From positions 38,803 through 102,802 of the IMG/VR virus record IMGVR_UViG_2974693523_000001: a stretch of DNA of 64,000 nucleotides; one strand, written 5' to 3'. Both the position numbers and the translations under genes were made by a program. Source of the DNA: a virus. Lineage: Duplodnaviria; Heunggongvirae; Uroviricota; Caudoviricetes; Ackermannviridae. Below the pieces are notes generated by a model that was given only the letters and a program-made list of their open reading frames with translations, was not told the DNA's origin and did no database searches. Positions 2,678-6,469 of the stretch are shown here, piece by piece (the stretch's first letter is position 1; every line of letters begins with the position of its first letter).

Positions 2678-2706
2678 AAAAAAAAAATCCACCCCGAAGA
2701 GTGGAT
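2678..2706 (-). terminator. intrinsic terminator (hairpin ATCCAC/GTGGAT followed by U-run on minus strand)
   Basis: A10 run, 6-bp stem and loop on the plus strand equal stem plus U-run on the minus strand. Sits immediately 3' of the tRNA-like element. Confidence 0.4.
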
Positions 2707-2716
2707 TTTAATGGGT

Positions 2717-2782
2717 TGGCGAGGGCGGGAGTTGAACCCGCTGTTTAGCTGTGCGGACTAAACAAAAACCTCTATCTACGCC
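2717..2782 (-). pseudogene. degenerate tRNA-like element (intact T-arm GCGGG-TTCAACT-CCCGC and acceptor 3' strand; no canonical D/anticodon arms; possible GCA loop)
   Basis: Manual folding: the T-arm and a 7-nt acceptor 3' strand are present, but the 5' acceptor partner and D-arm are not recoverable in about 66 nt. Confidence 0.3.
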
Positions 2783-2961
2783 TTTAATTTTTTGATGGTC
2801 CAGTCAAACAATGTCCACTTTGTTAGATAGCGATATGCATCTCTATAACTTTTAAACTGTGTTGCCTTATTAATATCCAAAGTATAACAGACATCACCTG
2901 GGAAACTAACAATATATTGTCTTTCACTGTTTGCTATAACAAACATATCACACCTTTAAAA

Positions 2962-3038
2962 TGGTGGGTCTGAGGGGAATTGAACCCCTGATCCTAGAGT
3001 TATGAGCTCTCCGCTTTAGACCGCTAAGCTACAGACCC
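2962..3038 (-). tRNA. tRNA-Met (anticodon CAT; could be initiator/elongator/Ile-lysidine type)
   Basis: Manual cloverleaf: acceptor GGGTCTG/CAGACCC, D-arm GCTT-AGCGGTCTAA-AGC, anticodon stem GAGAG/CTCTA with loop CTCATAA, T-arm AGGGG-TTCAATT-CCCCT, encoded CCA. Confidence 0.85.
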
Positions 3039-3706
3039 TTATAACGTATTAACTCCTTGATAGTATCAAAAGTGTTTGTATCAAGAAGTTTGATGTGTTC
3101 GCCTCTGATGATATACAATGGTTTAGTGCAATATGCCCATTTGCATTCATCCCTTTCTGTTTTATAACCCTTAACTTCTATAAAACATTCATAAGCGGGT
3201 AAATAAAAATCAGGGAAATATAAATGAGGACTTTCTCTCCAAATATACTCTTGAGGGTGTGTTTCACCTTCCCACTCTATGTTATTAGCATCAAGCCATT
3301 TGGCTACTAATAATTCCCAGTTACCCTTTAGTTTGTGGCCTCTGTATTCGATACAATTTCTTCCACAAACATTATTGGATGAATAAGAACTAGGGTTTTC
3401 AGAAACAGCCCTTTTCATCCTTTCTGAATGAGCCTTCCTTCTTTGATCAGTCCATTCAATGTTAGAACTCGCAACACTTAATTTTTCTCTAGTATCTTGA
3501 GAAACGATACACTCACGGCCTTCCTGTTTAGCTTTAGTGAATTGATTCTGACCATTACCTCTCCTTTCACTCATAGCTTTCAACCAAGCTTCTGATTTAG
3601 GTTTTTTAGGTTTGATGTTTATGTTATTCTTGCATGCGGACTCATGCACTGCTAAACCTCCAGTGTTCCCACATGTTTTCCCACAATATTTACATTGTAG
3701 CTGCAT
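3029..3706 (-). CDS. freestanding homing-endonuclease-like protein: N-terminal Cys/His zinc finger plus C-terminal PD-(D/E)xK nuclease core
   Basis: CKYCGKTC...HESAC zinc finger; C-terminal PDFYLPAYECFIEVKG fits D...ExK. Start moved to the ATG at 3706, where the preceding GAGG is an SD. The track's N-terminal extension (3707-3826) is built from tRNA remnants. Sits between tRNA genes. Confidence 0.5.
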   Translation of the reverse strand: MQLQCKYCGKTCGNTGGLAVHESACKNNINIKPKKPKSEAWLKAMSERRGNGQNQFTKAKQEGRECIVSQDTREKLSVASSNIEWTDQRRKAHSERMKRAVSENPSSYSSNNVCGRNCIEYRGHKLKGNWELLVAKWLDANNIEWEGETHPQEYIWRESPHLYFPDFYLPAYECFIEVKGYKTERDECKWAYCTKPLYIIRGEHIKLLDTNTFDTIKELIRYKGL

Positions 3707-3711
3707 AACAA

Positions 3712-3736
3712 CCTCTAACCACTGAGCTAAGGGGCC
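3712..3736 (-). pseudogene. tRNA 5'-half remnant (GGCCCCT-TA-GCTC-AGTGGTTAGAGG)
   Basis: Perfect tRNA acceptor-plus-D-arm signature with no matching 3' half nearby. Its GAGG now serves as the SD of the endonuclease gene. Confidence 0.45.
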
Positions 3737-3806
3737 AAAATTGGGAGCGGGATGGTTGATAGCCATCAGTATGTAATCCATCATAGGCAAGGCTTTGATG
3801 CCTTGG

Positions 3807-3842
3807 GTCTGTGTGCCTAGAATCACATACCTCTCCGCTTTA
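3807..3842 (-). pseudogene. decayed tRNA-Met-like remnant
   Basis: Shares the segments gggtctg, cctaga and cctctccgcttta with the intact tRNA-Met at 2962-3038, with internal deletions. Confidence 0.35.
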
Positions 3843-4115
3843 TTCTTCTGGTTCTTTCAAACTTTGTTCTTTTGAAAGATTGTTCATAATAAAATCGAAT
3901 AAAATTTCTGTTTTGTCTACGGACCAACATTCATGCCCATTTTTCATAACAGCAACAGAAACAGGTCTTCCTTTATCATCCCAACAATTAACTTCTGTAT
4001 AACAGGCACTTTGATCAGCGTCAATATCACCGTGGACTTGCTTGAACATCCACAATAGCTTCTGTTCATCGTTCATTTCAGAAATTAACATTTTATTCAC
4101 CAAATGGTTCTTCAT
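3840..4115 (-). CDS. hypothetical protein (91 aa)
   Basis: ORF between tRNA genes. Confidence 0.4.
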   Translation of the reverse strand: MKNHLVNKMLISEMNDEQKLLWMFKQVHGDIDADQSACYTEVNCWDDKGRPVSVAVMKNGHECWSVDKTEILFDFIMNNLSKEQSLKEPEE

Positions 4116-4323
4116 AAAAACGAAGCGGGTGTTTAGAGGCCATTAGGTTCACACAAAAAGACAACTCCTTTACATCTTCATGGATAATAGCGTCAGGGTT
4201 GTTTTTGTATTCCTTGCGTTGCTCTTGTGCAACCTGTAACACAAGTTTCACAAAGCCGTAAAGTCCTTTAGCTCGGATACCTTTTCTGATGTTCTCGACC
4301 AGTTGTTGATCTAAATTTTCCAT
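4093..4323 (-). CDS. hypothetical protein (76 aa)
   Basis: Track ORF starts inside tRNA-Arg. Internal ATG at 4323 is preceded by AGAGGTG. Confidence 0.4.
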   Translation of the reverse strand: MENLDQQLVENIRKGIRAKGLYGFVKLVLQVAQEQRKEYKNNPDAIIHEDVKELSFCVNLMASKHPLRFYEEPFGE

Positions 4324-4340
4324 AAACACCTCTAAACAAA

Positions 4341-4417
4341 TGGCGCGCTGTACAGGATTCGAACCTGTGACCACAAGCTTAGAAGGCTCGTGCTCTATCC
4401 TACTGAGCTAACAGCGC
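4341..4417 (-). tRNA. tRNA-Arg (anticodon TCT)
   Basis: Manual cloverleaf: acceptor GCGCTGT/ACAGCGC, D-arm GCTC-AGTAGGATA-GAGC, anticodon stem CGAGC/GCTTG with loop CTTCTAA, T-arm ACAGG-TTCGAAT-CCTGT, discriminator G, CCA. Confidence 0.85.
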
Positions 4418-4652
4418 ATAAATTAATGAGGGTTACGCCGTCCCTCTGCTACCGCTTGCCGGCCATTACGCCTCATCAAAGTAGCCGATTTATTTTATTG
4501 AAATCCTCTTAAGTCGAATATAATAGAGCATACCTCTAAATTCTTTATAGCCATGTGCCACTCAAAAGGATTTCAATAAAGGGGCTGTTTCAAACCCCTT
4601 GGAATGGTGTGGATTAACAATCGCTGACCTGTAATTGTACAGGCACCACACG

Positions 4653-5282
4653 CTAGTTCACAGCGTCACCAATATGACTGAGTTGGTGAACGTCCCCATT
4701 GTCTAGGGCATCTCTCCACCTAAGCAAGGCTTCTTTAACTTCTTTATTACTCTGAGTCATAGCTAAACGGTAAGCATATTCAGATTTTCTTCTGCGCCAA
4801 GCATAATGAGCTTCTAACTCTCTTTCAAAAAGACCTAGATATCCACGTTTTTTATTGAATGGGTCATTACATTGCGCTTTGAACTTACCCGCTACTTTAC
4901 ACCAGCAAACACCTATGAGATATTCTCCAGAACTAGCTTTGTGATCATTTATGAACGCATTAATTTGCCTTGTCACAAACATACATGTATCAGGTGAATA
5001 TAATTTGTTCCCTACTAGCTTTAAATCTTTGTCTAGTACATAATCAAACCCATCTGTTGGGTAATTAGATTCATACCATTCAGCAAAATTTTGGTAGTGT
5101 AACCAATCACCACAAACTTCACATTCTTTATACGTTGGTTGCCTAGAATGATATTTCACGTCGTAGCATCTCTGGAGCATACTTCTCCATTTTATGTACG
5201 AATCTGTTAGAACGCCATCTTGACTCGCTTTATGACGCCCCTTTTCATAGACACCAACACCAAACAATAATTTGTTTCTCAT
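4653..5282 (-). CDS. freestanding homing-endonuclease-like protein with HNH-like region and AP2-type DNA-binding domain
   Basis: YLIGVCWCKVAGKFKAQCN..RGYLGLFERELEAHYAW fits the AP2 pattern. N-terminal GVYEKGRH...YIKWRSMLQRCY and LDKDLKLVGNKLYSPDTCMFVTRQINAF resemble phage HNH/AP2 homing endonucleases. Sits inside the tRNA cluster. Confidence 0.5.
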   Translation of the reverse strand: MRNKLLFGVGVYEKGRHKASQDGVLTDSYIKWRSMLQRCYDVKYHSRQPTYKECEVCGDWLHYQNFAEWYESNYPTDGFDYVLDKDLKLVGNKLYSPDTCMFVTRQINAFINDHKASSGEYLIGVCWCKVAGKFKAQCNDPFNKKRGYLGLFERELEAHYAWRRRKSEYAYRLAMTQSNKEVKEALLRWRDALDNGDVHQLSHIGDAVN

Positions 5283-5840
5283 AACAAATGTACTCGACGA
5301 AAACTTCTCAAAATATACTTTCTCAAATACATTTTGAGAAGTGGGTTGGGAAAATACCCACGTCCCGTCTGTCTCACGACAGTCTCAATCTAGCGGGTCT
5401 TAGGCTCCCGTTAGAAGGGTTCTGTACGGCTTGAGGGATGTAAGCCACCAGAACTAGCGAAACACAACATTTGATCGCGAAATGGCATGTTTATAGCGGT
5501 TGACTTCCCGCGACTGGCAAAACCCCAGTCCATAGAGCGTGGTATGCGTTGCCTCACTCTTTTAAGCGGTCTTAATCTTAGATGAGGAATCCGTTAGCAA
5601 CAATGTTAATCGGATTGATTAAGACCGCTTAAAAAAGACCCCTACACTAAAGGGGTGAACATAAATTTATGTCCTTTTAAAACGCACTTTATCACATCAA
5701 AACAAACTTGAAAAATTTATTTTGATGTGACCCCTATACAGGGACCACAACTGACCTCCGAATCCCAACAAAACGAGGGTCACTGGTTTGCCATGCCATG
5801 TCTTACCAGCTTTAAACACTCTTGACAAAAAGCGCTTAAA
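5283..5840. other. 558-bp structured non-coding region (multiple perfect hairpins/palindromes); candidate stable small RNA(s)
   Basis: 14-bp perfect stem aagcggtcttaatc...gattaagaccgctt (5563-5632) with an internal aatccg/cggatt stem. 14-nt palindrome acataaatttatgt. 11-bp inverted repeat tcacatcaaaa/ttttgatgtga. No credible ORF. Confidence 0.4.
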
Positions 5841-5842
5841 GA

Positions 5843-5919
5843 TGGCGTCCACAATGGGATTTGAACCCATGACCTTTCCCTTAGGAGGGGAATGCTCTAT
5901 CCAACTGAGCTACGCGGAC
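5843..5919 (-). tRNA. tRNA-Arg (anticodon CCT)
   Basis: Manual cloverleaf: acceptor GTCCGCG/TGTGGAC (two G-U pairs), D-arm GCTC-AGTTGGATA-GAGC, anticodon stem TTCCC/GGGAA with loop CTCCTAA, T-arm ATGGG-TTCAAAT-CCCAT, discriminator G, CCA. Confidence 0.75.
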
Positions 5920-5921
5920 GG

Positions 5922-6011
5922 TGGTGGGTGCAGATGGATTCGAACCATCCCGTTTCAAACCTCATTCCTCACAAGGATATGCGCGACCTCTCGCTATTAC
6001 AGTTTACACCC
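5922..6011 (-). ncRNA. 90-nt tRNA-like RNA (intact acceptor GGGTGTA/TGCACCC, T-arm GATGG-TTCGAAT-CCATC, CCA) lacking a canonical anticodon/D arm
   Basis: Manual folding: the ends are perfectly tRNA-like, but the interior 55 nt folds as a GCGA-GAGG-TCGC hairpin and gives no 5-bp/7-nt anticodon arm. Either a type-II tRNA that needs tRNAscan-SE, or a tRNA-derived stable RNA. Confidence 0.35.
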
Positions 6012-6019
6012 AAATTGAA

Positions 6020-6106
6020 CACCCCGTGCAGGATTCGAACCTGCGTCACTTTCGGTATCTCGAGCACGAGTCTCCGACTAATCTTAACCGCTAGAATGAA
6101 CGGGGT
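6020..6106 (-). ncRNA. 87-nt tRNA-like RNA (acceptor ACCCCGT/ACGGGGT, T-arm GCAGG-TTCGAAT-CCTGC, no encoded CCA) with non-canonical interior
   Basis: Manual folding: acceptor and T-arm are perfect, the D-arm is weak, and the interior forms an extended interrupted hairpin TCGG-AGA-CTCG-TGCT-CGAG-ATA-CCGA instead of an anticodon arm. Confidence 0.3.
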
Positions 6107-6322
6107 GGTTGGCGGTGAGTAATTTAGCTAACTCACCTTATCAATTTATATTATTAAAGAGCTTTTGGGTGTTTTAAGTAAGGGCGGATTTTAACCCGCC
6201 CTGTACTTTGGACGCCCCGTTAAGTAACTAAGCTGCTGTTTTTGAACTGCTTATTCCTTAACTTGAGACCATTAAAACATGCTTAATTTATGAAAGCAAC
6301 ACATTTTTAATTTTTTTTTTTG

Positions 6323-6469
6323 TTACTCGTCTTCGTCTTCCAAACCACCACTCAATTCAATGTCAGGTGATTCACAAAATGGGCAAACTTCTGGCTTTAT
6401 GTGTGAATTACAAGAAATTGAACACTCTTCGTCACAGTTTTGACAAATTATACCGTAGACAACATCCAT
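6323..6469 (-). CDS. small Cys-rich (zinc-ribbon-like) protein, 48 aa, acidic C-terminus
   Basis: Own translation: MDVVYGIICQNCDEECSISCNSHIKPEVCPFCESPDIELSGGLEDEDE. GAGGA SD lies 8 nt upstream. Absent from the ORF track (under 60 aa). Confidence 0.4.
   Translation of the reverse strand: MDVVYGIICQNCDEECSISCNSHIKPEVCPFCESPDIELSGGLEDEDE

Follow-up and report, generated by a model that had tools for sequence, protein, structure and literature searches.

The 64-kb stretch of DNA analysed in this work, hereafter called the window, is 100% identical to Vibrio phage vB_VchM_Kuja (Ackermannviridae, Kujavirus), and the subject of this report is its tRNA operon, which occupies about 6.13 to 2.68 kb on the minus strand. 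Our comparative analysis suggests that this operon is probably a recombination mosaic assembled around two mobile cassettes, and that two tRNA-like elements within it, named B and C, are most likely stable non-decoding RNAs. A first-pass annotation, made from the sequence without database searches, had described the region as an eroding cluster of three canonical tRNAs, three tRNA-like elements (A, B and C), tRNA fragments and two endonuclease-like open reading frames (ORFs). As to the canonical tRNAs, the programs agree with it: exactly three, all on the minus strand, were called by both ARAGORN and Rfam with scores of 66-71 bits, namely tRNA-Met(CAT) (2962-3038), tRNA-Arg(TCT) (4341-4417; 71.2 bits) and tRNA-Arg(CCT) (5843-5919; 66.7 bits). 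Rfam families other than tRNA gave zero matches in Kuja and in the phages VPALA, PhaxI, IME341, CkP1 and AsFcp_4.

The evidence for B and C as distinct RNAs begins with their anatomy. Both strands of the window (128 kb) were scanned for modules comprising a 5-bp T stem, a loop of the UUCRANY type and an adjoining 7-nt strand pairing at 7/7 positions with an upstream 7-mer. Apart from the three tRNAs and a single chance hit, it yielded only B and C; therefore, B and C are far above chance. Each of them measures 86 nt from acceptor end to acceptor end. Element B (5922-6011, minus strand) consists of a 7-bp acceptor stem including one G.U pair, hairpin 1 (GCGA-GAGG-UCGC), hairpin 2 (6 bp with a 5-nt loop), the T arm GAUGG-UUCGAAU-CCAUC and an encoded ACCA end, and has neither a D arm nor an anticodon arm. 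Element C (6020-6107, minus strand; 6106-6021 between the acceptor ends) has the acceptor stem ACCCCGU/ACGGGGU, which is Watson-Crick paired at 7/7 positions, the T arm GCAGG-UUCGAAU-CCUGC and a D arm that is weak in Kuja (3/4 bp, with GG in the loop), and the site of its anticodon arm holds the extended hairpin UCGG-AGA-CUCG-UGCU-CGAG-AUA-CCGA. Neither element was called as a tRNA by ARAGORN at default settings or by Rfam RF00005 (gathering score 29 bits), the best score in a small-window Rfam search being about 15 bits. The earlier description of three elements with perfect acceptor stems and T arms and no foldable anticodon arm thus holds for B and C, and for A it fails at the acceptor stem, as described below.

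The genomes used for comparison were VPALA and SUMAE, L080 (a 10.3-kb Logan contig, found through its 97%-identical homologue of the AP2 ORF described below) and L081 (a strain 98.3% identical to Kuja). B is present in VPALA/SUMAE and in L080, and both B and C are identical in L081. Outside hairpin 2, B differs between Kuja and VPALA at only two positions (about 97% identity), as against about 80% identity for the tRNAs beside it and about 65% for coding DNA. Hairpin 2 itself reads CCUUGU-GAGGA-AUGAGG, CCUAGC-CUAGA-GUUAGG and CCUAGC-CAGA-GCUAGG in the three lineages; two of its pairs are doubly compensated, further pairs are singly compensated and none is broken. Exact and gapped B motifs gave zero matches in IMG/VR, and a scan for B in a single metagenome gave five chance matches and no B homologue.

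C changes in a similar manner. In L080 it keeps the acceptor stem and the T arm of Kuja, and the D arm, which has GG in its loop, is perfect; 45 nt of unrelated sequence make up the central arm and again form a clean hairpin, with the base stem UCGG/CCGA of Kuja replaced by UUUGG/CCAAA, and the element as a whole folds as a cloverleaf (z = -4.55). The gene order in VPALA and SUMAE is tRNA-Arg(cct) - B - tRNA-Arg(tct), the latter tRNA being the orthologue of the Kuja tRNA-Arg(TCT), and C occupies the site of the VPALA tRNA-Arg(cct). The acceptor sequences of the two are nearly the same (ACCCCGU vs GCCCCGU), and the differences at pairs 1-72 and 50-64 are compensated; therefore, the probable ancestor of C is a tRNA-Arg in which another sequence took the place of the anticodon arm.

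This descent would also suit a purely erosive history, in which A, B and C are all tRNA pseudogenes in neutral decay after endonuclease-driven duplication or replacement. The tRNA-Arg(cct) at the site of C in VPALA is a working gene with a shared acceptor, and an intact tRNA-Arg(CCT) lies 100 nt away in Kuja; element A lacks a D arm, and its acceptor stem is broken; real debris, consisting of a tRNA-Met remnant and a tRNA 5' half, lies nearby. Odd copies are moreover common, as 30 distinct acceptor plus T-arm modules were left uncalled by ARAGORN (about 8%), against 337 called tRNAs, in 74 phage loci. Nevertheless, we consider such a history unlikely. B outside hairpin 2 is conserved above functional tRNAs and far above coding DNA between lineages that are about 35% diverged, the stem changes in B and C are compensatory and none is disruptive, and in C the acceptor stem and the T arm have stayed perfect, as has the D arm in L080, the central arm alone being swapped for a different, well-formed hairpin; a restriction to a single arm is not what neutral decay would produce. 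The term "eroding" therefore does not suit B and C, which are more conserved than the adjacent tRNAs and protein genes; they appear to be conserved elements of functional look, presumably with a function, and not pseudogenes. Selection evidently keeps the handles for tRNA processing and a hairpin, the sequence of which is free, or pushed, to change.

A C-like design was observed in other places as well. Two VPALA sequences (L002:4213-4297 and about 3884-3947) and the PhaxI gene annotated "tRNA-OTHER" (L005:4615-4699) have canonical acceptor, D and T arms and an irregular arm of 26-30 nt replacing the anticodon arm.

Could B or C, or both, be decoding tRNAs of unusual design, with an intervening sequence in the anticodon loop, an expanded frameshift-suppressor loop, or a type-II or selenocysteine (Sec)-like fold? 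Their length of 86 nt is that of type-II tRNAs, C can be folded by ARAGORN when the threshold is relaxed to 80%, the alignment of the Rfam tRNA-Sec model extends over all of B (14.9 bits), and phages do carry non-canonical decoders, examples being the strongly covarying tRNA(CAU)-like genes without a D arm that adjoin ORFs of the endonuclease family described below. We judge this to be very improbable. Examined for a 5-bp anticodon stem, a 7-nt loop, U33 and a purine at position 37, B shows a 6-bp stem with a 4-5-nt loop, and C an extended arm closed by a tetraloop, 26 nt long in Kuja (UGCU) and 45 nt in L080 (GUGA). The relaxed ARAGORN fold of C requires a loop of 8 nt and reads ctcg as the "anticodon". 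The lineages share neither a 7-nt loop nor a candidate anticodon, the loop of B hairpin 2 being GAGGA, CUAGA or CAGA, and the scores of B and C are far under the gathering thresholds. The identities type-II tRNA, Sec tRNA and transfer-messenger RNA (tmRNA) were each rejected; there is no conserved anticodon arm, ARAGORN -m was negative and no tmRNA was called.

The reading of B and C as non-decoding RNAs is joined by evidence that they belong to a mobile block. All genes within 2.6-6.5 kb of the window lie on the minus strand. Read 5' to 3' on that strand, the operon contains two small hairpins, C, B, tRNA-Arg(CCT), a 560-nt ORF-free spacer, a 209-amino-acid (aa) ORF (5282-4653), a 235-nt spacer, tRNA-Arg(TCT), two small ORFs, about 135 nt of tRNA debris, a 225-aa endonuclease ORF (3706-3029), tRNA-Met, a 56-aa ORF, element A (2782-2717) and a strong intrinsic terminator (2709-2684) that closes it. 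When L080 was compared with Kuja, positions 3044-4699 of the former matched positions 6057-4417 of the latter with 89% identity, compared with 63-72% for the flanking genes, and the protein of the AP2 ORF was 97% identical. This block of 1.65 kb begins within C and ends at the base preceding tRNA-Arg(TCT), and the 5' part of C is likewise conserved beyond the swapped hairpin. It is therefore well supported by the alignment that a 1.65-kb cassette, carrying the 3' part of C, B, tRNA-Arg(CCT) and the AP2 ORF, was recently exchanged between diverged phages. L080 also lacks Kuja 4417-2740, the 1.7 kb between tRNA-Arg(TCT) and A. At the junction it carries a chimeric pseudo-tRNA with a good D arm, a UCU anticodon arm and a T arm, the acceptor of which is paired at 3/7 positions; this looks like the product of a crossover between tRNA genes.

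Exchange is visible on a shorter scale between Kuja and L081, the differences of which fall in patches. Six of them lie in tRNA-Arg(CCT), including two compensatory stem pairs, so that the L081 allele differs by compensatory changes in the anticodon stem, and gp184 (window 4093-4323) forms a sharp recombination patch that is 13.9% diverged, compared with 0-0.3% for its neighbours. This clustering indicates frequent short conversion tracts.

Both spacers of the exchanged block appear to be structured RNAs. The 560-nt spacer (5283-5842, minus strand) is predicted to fold as a chain of long hairpins (z = -10.3). In an alignment of the Kuja and L080 sequences, the same two from which the structure was derived, all 171 predicted pairs were paired in both, and 12 of them were doubly compensated, as against 0-1 double changes in controls with slid partners. 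There were 14 one-sided changes, and all of them gave G.U pairs in the minus-strand sense. The spacer belongs to no Rfam family, and blastn against the phage collection matched Kuja only. The possibility that it is a decayed N-terminal HNH domain of the AP2 ORF was rejected, for the homologues of that ORF are full length at about 200 aa and the spacer covaries as RNA. The 235-nt spacer (4418-4652, minus strand; fold z = -4.5) is predicted to form a mini tRNA-like stem, in which GUGUGG (4651-4646) pairs with CCACAC (4612-4607), followed by CA, and a long hairpin (about 4580-4494). Compared with L080, 6/65 of its pairs are doubly compensated and none is broken; the six include the pair that opens the mini acceptor-like stem (4651-4605).

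An alternative for the hairpins and the tRNA-like modules alike is that they act as DNA, as nuclease recognition or recombination sites or as cruciforms. The many long perfect inverted repeats, the coincidence of cassette boundaries with tRNA-like sequences and the precedent of SegB, which reads the T-arm motif GGTTCRANTCC in DNA, are all in keeping with such a role, to which we give little credence. The 14/14 one-sided changes in the 560-nt spacer yield G.U pairs only in the minus-strand sense; on the other strand they are A-C mismatches, and in a DNA cruciform they would be mismatches. For B, the conserved single-stranded segments and the encoded ACCA end fit an RNA product.

The 209-aa ORF of the exchanged block (4653-5282, minus strand), annotated as "HNH endonuclease", is composed of an N-terminal beta-beta-alpha element and a C-terminal AP2 DNA-binding domain. 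It matches PHROG 953 (3.6e-72) at profile positions 194-390 of 420 only, and sequence searches of Pfam, NCBIfam and PDB with it gave no match. An AlphaFold model built from 43 homologues reached a predicted local distance difference test (pLDDT) value of 93, and the AP2 domain is confirmed in this model by a three-stranded sheet on a helix that matches solved AP2 domains. The beta-beta-alpha element has the invariant residues D84-K85-D86, N92 and N108 in an HNH-like layout. An HNH nuclease assignment is not supported, because an invariant Lys stands at the position of the catalytic His; there was also no structural or Pfam match to HNH. Of the HNH/AP2 proposal in the first-pass annotation, only the AP2 half is therefore retained. 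The family of this ORF is sporadic and widespread in Vibrio phages.

The other putative cassette is centred on a freestanding endonuclease gene of 225 aa (3029-3706, minus strand), which combines an N-terminal C2HC zinc finger with a T7-endonuclease-I-like PD-(D/E)XK core. Every aligned homologue starts with M-x(1-3)-C-x2-C; therefore, the annotated 40-residue extension, which consists of tRNA debris, is spurious, and the true start, by the N-termini of all aligned homologues, is the ATG at 3706 that had been proposed before. The RefSeq entry YP_009854102 needs its start moved accordingly. A GAGG motif (3715-3712), which is part of the tRNA 5' half, lies 5 nt before this ATG. The residues C5, C8, H21 and C25 of the zinc finger as well as E131, D166, E177 and K179 are invariant in the homologue alignment. 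The protein matches phrog_15137 (1.3e-28), and its core aligns to T7 endonuclease I (PDB 1m0d) with the PD...ExK motif in register (family profile E = 3.6e-7); the Pfam match to PF05367 scored 23.2 bits, under the cut-off of 29.1. The invariant residues and this alignment agree with the two domains assigned at first pass.

The association of this gene with tRNAs is intimate. The TAG stop codon of the ORF is U8-A9-G10 of tRNA-Met, and the resulting 10-nt overlap is also found in PhaxI, L029 and L058; in PhaxI, a Kuttervirus, the homologue is in addition preceded by the same leader and tRNA 5' half. The ORF is present in Kuja, L081 and PhaxI and absent from VPALA and L080, and thus shows the sporadic presence beside or inside a conserved target gene that is characteristic of freestanding homing genes. 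In the T4-like phage IME341, the homologue lies between tRNA-Met/Ile(CAU) and tRNA-Arg, which is the slot of segB in T4. Searches of IMG/VR with the baseplate-hub protein or the single ORF1 protein found no related loci, and an alignment query found them. Most of the 54 loci of the family in IMG/VR are within tRNA clusters; a tRNA-Met(cat) starts at the end of the ORF in 19 of them and a tRNA-Ile(tat) in 8, several with the TAG stop at U8-A9-G10.

In four cases, CkP1, AsFcp_4, L050 and L065, the ORF lies inside the anticodon loop of a tRNA, and the joined halves form perfect cloverleaves. In Citrobacter phage CkP1 (L012:1416-2161) and Aeromonas phage AsFcp_4 (L011:1563-2326), the split gene is a tRNA(CAU) and the junction is compatible with CUC|AUAA (C34|A35); the joined tRNA of L050 was read by ARAGORN as tRNA-Leu(UAA). 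A group I intron was considered for these insertions and rejected, as no Rfam match at E <= 1 to such an intron was found in L011 or L012 and the insertions, 669-691 nt in length, contain only about 50 nt of non-coding sequence. Taking the loci together, we conclude that the ORF represents a putative homing-type nuclease family specialised on tRNA(CAU) genes. In CkP1 and IME341, it was also noticed that the ribosome-binding site is sequestered in a hairpin.

A further observation concerns uncultivated phages, in which D-armless tRNA(CAU)-like genes of 76 nt lie exactly at the 3' end of ORFs of this family (L017:1272-1347, L021:1984-2059, L025:2139-2214, L027:2139-2214, L031:2179-2254 and L072:1818-1894). 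They consist of a 7-bp acceptor, an anticodon arm of 9 bp with a bulge (the loop being CUCAUAA or CUUAUAN in most), a connector of 14 nt (GUAAUYGGUUACAUG) and a T arm, show compensatory changes in 16/21 pairs and are not called by ARAGORN.

Upstream of the endonuclease ORF lie three pieces of tRNA sequence, all on the minus strand. The first is a deleted tRNA-Met remnant (3804-3842), in which the exact 12-mer TAAAGCGGAGAG (3842-3831), equalled in only 1/500 shuffles, is followed by the colinear blocks CTAGG and CAGACCCA; the deleted tRNA-Met copy postulated earlier is thus real. The second is a T-arm-like hairpin, GAUGG-CUAUCAA-CCAUC followed by CCGCUCC (3744-3767), which would be a tRNA 3'-end remnant directly upstream of the 5' half; PhaxI carries a tRNA 3' remnant (...CCUCAGACCCCGCCA) at the matching spot. 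The third is an AATTTT leader with the orphan tRNA(CAU)-type 5' half GGCCCCTTAGCTCAGTGGTTAGAGG (3712-3742, the half being 3736-3712), which likewise precedes the homologous ORF in PhaxI and CkP1. The half matches the intact VPALA tRNA-Met(cat) at 22/25 nt, and half plus leader match PhaxI at 31/33 nt, which bears out the earlier recognition of a tRNA 5' half within the mis-annotated N-terminus. No 3' half matching the orphan GGCCCCU half was found in the window.

Element A (2717-2782, minus strand) is a degenerate, D-armless tRNA-like piece with an interrupted acceptor, an 8-bp stem and the T arm GCGGG-UUCAACU-CCCGC. Its acceptor is not perfect, as had been claimed, but is paired at 5/7 positions if the 5' strand is contiguous (GGCGUAG), and at 7/7 positions only with a 7-nt bulge (GGC[GUAGAUA]GAGG vs CCUCGCC). 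The 7-nt loop of the 8-bp stem, CCGCACA, has neither U33 nor a purine at 37 (C33, C37), and the 5' strand overlaps the stop codon of the ORF 2776-2946. A was not called by default ARAGORN or by Rfam RF00005 at the gathering score, and blastn against the phage collection returned only Kuja itself and terminator-like noise. Together with the terminator, its T arm and 3' acceptor strand are 86% identical to L080 4748-4804, which is the 3' part of the chimeric pseudo-tRNA-Arg(UCU) there, and two substitutions distinguish A in L081 from that in Kuja, both of them preserving the pairing. The best interpretation of A is that of a terminal tRNA of which the 3' part was retained. Along with the tRNA-Met remnant, the T-arm-like hairpin and the orphan 5' half, it appears to be a genuine leftover of recombination between tRNA genes.

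In the mosaic that we favour, the operon would be transcribed as one polycistronic RNA, from which RNase P and 3'-end processing would cut each tRNA-shaped module, giving three tRNAs, B, C and ORF-bearing segments. B and C keep the features that are read by RNase P, 3'-end trimming and the CCA enzyme, namely the acceptor, the T arm and, in C, also a D arm with GG; most likely, they would be excised from the precursor as tRNAs are and would build up as stable RNAs without a decoding role, comparable to T4 species 1. The first cassette would be a freestanding homing-type endonuclease gene targeting tRNA(CAU), with the broken target copy upstream and an intact tRNA-Met at its 3' end that restores the lost function; in Kuja, the orphan 5' half would be the broken copy and the downstream tRNA-Met the working replacement. 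The PD-(D/E)XK enzyme would cut sensitive tRNA(CAU) alleles in co-infecting relatives, repair would copy the gene and its flanks, as with SegB, and redundant or broken tRNA copies would decay afterwards. The second cassette, C - B - tRNA-Arg(CCT) - 560-nt RNA - AP2 ORF - 235-nt RNA, would move between diverged phages as one block. Endonuclease-driven tRNA turnover, the idea put forward at first pass, is favoured in this form by the sporadic ORFs of mobile type, the linkage to tRNA(CAU), the cassette exchange and the chimeric pseudo-tRNA of L080; the parts of it that have to be given up are the erosion of B and C and the HNH nuclease.

Several points weigh against this mosaic or parts of it. 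B is known from three distinct sequences and C from two, so the covariation statistics are thin, and part of the likeness of B and C between Kuja and L080 could come from the recent cassette transfer and not from selection; the VPALA comparison for B is unaffected by this. The AP2 ORF has no recognisable nuclease site, which leaves no evident mobiliser for the second cassette, and the cleavage target of the PD-(D/E)XK enzyme is deduced from context only. Finally, the 5' half with its AATTTT leader (window 3712-3742 vs L005:2501-2533) is 94% identical between Kuja and PhaxI, compared with 40% identity for the nuclease proteins and with downstream tRNA-Met genes that are visibly diverged; plain debris does not account for this.

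A more speculative extension, which we regard as doubtful, is that B and C, perhaps with the 0.5-kb spacer RNA, constitute a new class of phage RNAs, "tRNA-scaffolded" ones that a mobile cassette would bring along as its cargo. Processing and stability would be provided for by the acceptor, T and D arms, and the fast-changing hairpin at the site of the anticodon arm would then be the functional part, engaged in an arms race, for example as a decoy or inhibitor of tRNA-targeting defence nucleases or tRNA-binding enzymes. Linked to it, the ribozyme-less splitting of tRNA(CAU) at C34|A35 in T4-like phages might mark a protein-dependent splicing or repair of tRNA.

Some other features of the surrounding DNA are recorded here. 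Directly upstream of the tRNA operon, a 48-aa ORF (window 6323-6469) with two CxxC pairs and a weak HypA-like zinc-ribbon match is kept in L080 and L081. L081 carries a gene for an IS605-family TnpB/OrfB protein (L081:41-1270) in the place that is taken in Kuja by the baseplate-hub side of the locus. Apart from those of L080 and L081, the homologues of the pesticin-like lysozyme are in unrelated phages. PhaxI has, inside a 2.3-kb ORF-free region (L005 240-2570), an unannotated stretch of about 130 nt (L005:885-1041) that is 70-84% identical to unannotated DNA of many phages with genomes of about 41-85 kb, including HK633, IME11, Sa179lw, phiEa104 and several Klebsiella phages. This stretch has no Rfam match, and its surroundings are rich in long hairpins and tRNA-like T-arm pieces.

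Both homing endonucleases within the tRNA clusters of phages and stable RNAs resembling tRNAs have a precedent in T4. What appears to be new, from the sequence comparisons, is two unannotated, conserved families of tRNA-shaped RNAs with a variable hairpin at the site of the anticodon arm, a covarying 0.5-kb RNA within the same mobile block, a T7-endonuclease-I-like family apparently dedicated to tRNA(CAU) genes that sometimes splits them without an intron, and direct comparative evidence of cassette exchange. Recent work has connected the tRNA clusters of phages with evasion of host defences that cleave tRNAs, and homing endonucleases with the rapid remodelling of these clusters (PMC13096335). 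The Kuja locus would be a clear natural example of cassette-wise exchange of tRNA genes, in which the broken copy is left beside its replacement. ARAGORN, Rfam and the genome annotation had all overlooked a structured RNA of 0.5 kb and at least two conserved RNAs of tRNA shape. Given that about 8% of the tRNA-like modules in the surveyed loci were uncalled, the "tRNA regions" of phages probably hold more non-decoding RNAs than recognised.

Among known systems, GOLLD and ROOL, large ornate phage-associated RNAs found near tRNAs, resemble the 560-nt spacer, which is likewise a covarying structured RNA of about 0.5 kb beside phage tRNA genes. The spacer differs from them in having no Rfam match, in its look of a chain of long hairpins and in being known from two sequences. 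The HNH-AP2 homing endonucleases of phages (PHROG 953/374) share with the ORF 4653-5282 a strong family match and a genuine AP2 fold; the Kuja ORF differs in covering only the C-terminal half of the long profile and in its invariant Lys in place of His. I-Ssp6803I is a PD-(D/E)XK homing endonuclease encoded in a group I intron of the Synechocystis tRNA-fMet gene, inserted in the anticodon loop (PMC1995217). The family of the Kuja endonuclease is like it in enzyme class, in the CAU tRNA gene and in the anticodon loop, where the insertions in Kuja relatives lie at C34|A35. There is no detectable sequence relation between the two, PDB searches with the Kuja ORF returning only T7 endonuclease I, and Kuja relatives have no group I intron; in Kuja itself, unlike I-Ssp6803I, the gene is freestanding between a broken and an intact tRNA.

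The closest parallel is the tRNA region of T4. SegB, for which the T-arm motif of tRNA genes is the recognition site, drives the inheritance and co-conversion of this region (PMC2330249), and segB is associated with tRNAs across phages (PMC13096335). Certain details differ: the T4 enzyme is of the GIY-YIG type, whereas Kuja has a PD-(D/E)XK/zinc-finger enzyme and an AP2 protein; rnaC (species 1) is 139 nt long, compared with 86-90 nt and full 7-bp acceptors for B and C; and B and C precede tRNA-Arg, whereas the T4 stable RNAs, species 1 (rnaC) and species 2 (rnaD), follow it. When the C/B region was compared by distant blastn with the phage collection, T4 included, the hits listed were to tRNA-gene regions and unannotated DNA and not to T4 rnaC or rnaD, no direct alignment with these having been made. 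In both phages, a freestanding homing endonuclease gene lies in the operon and genes for non-tRNA stable RNAs, putative in Kuja, adjoin tRNA-Arg. Like B and C, species 1 combines a closing stem and additional hairpins with a canonical T arm (CCGGG-UUCGAAU-CCCGG). B and C have this anatomy of a T arm and a closing stem with no anticodon arm within a tRNA operon, and may accumulate as stable RNAs in the same way. With the endonuclease family in the segB slot and the T arm and closing stem of rnaC, the analogy with T4 segB and species 1 that was drawn at first pass is sound.

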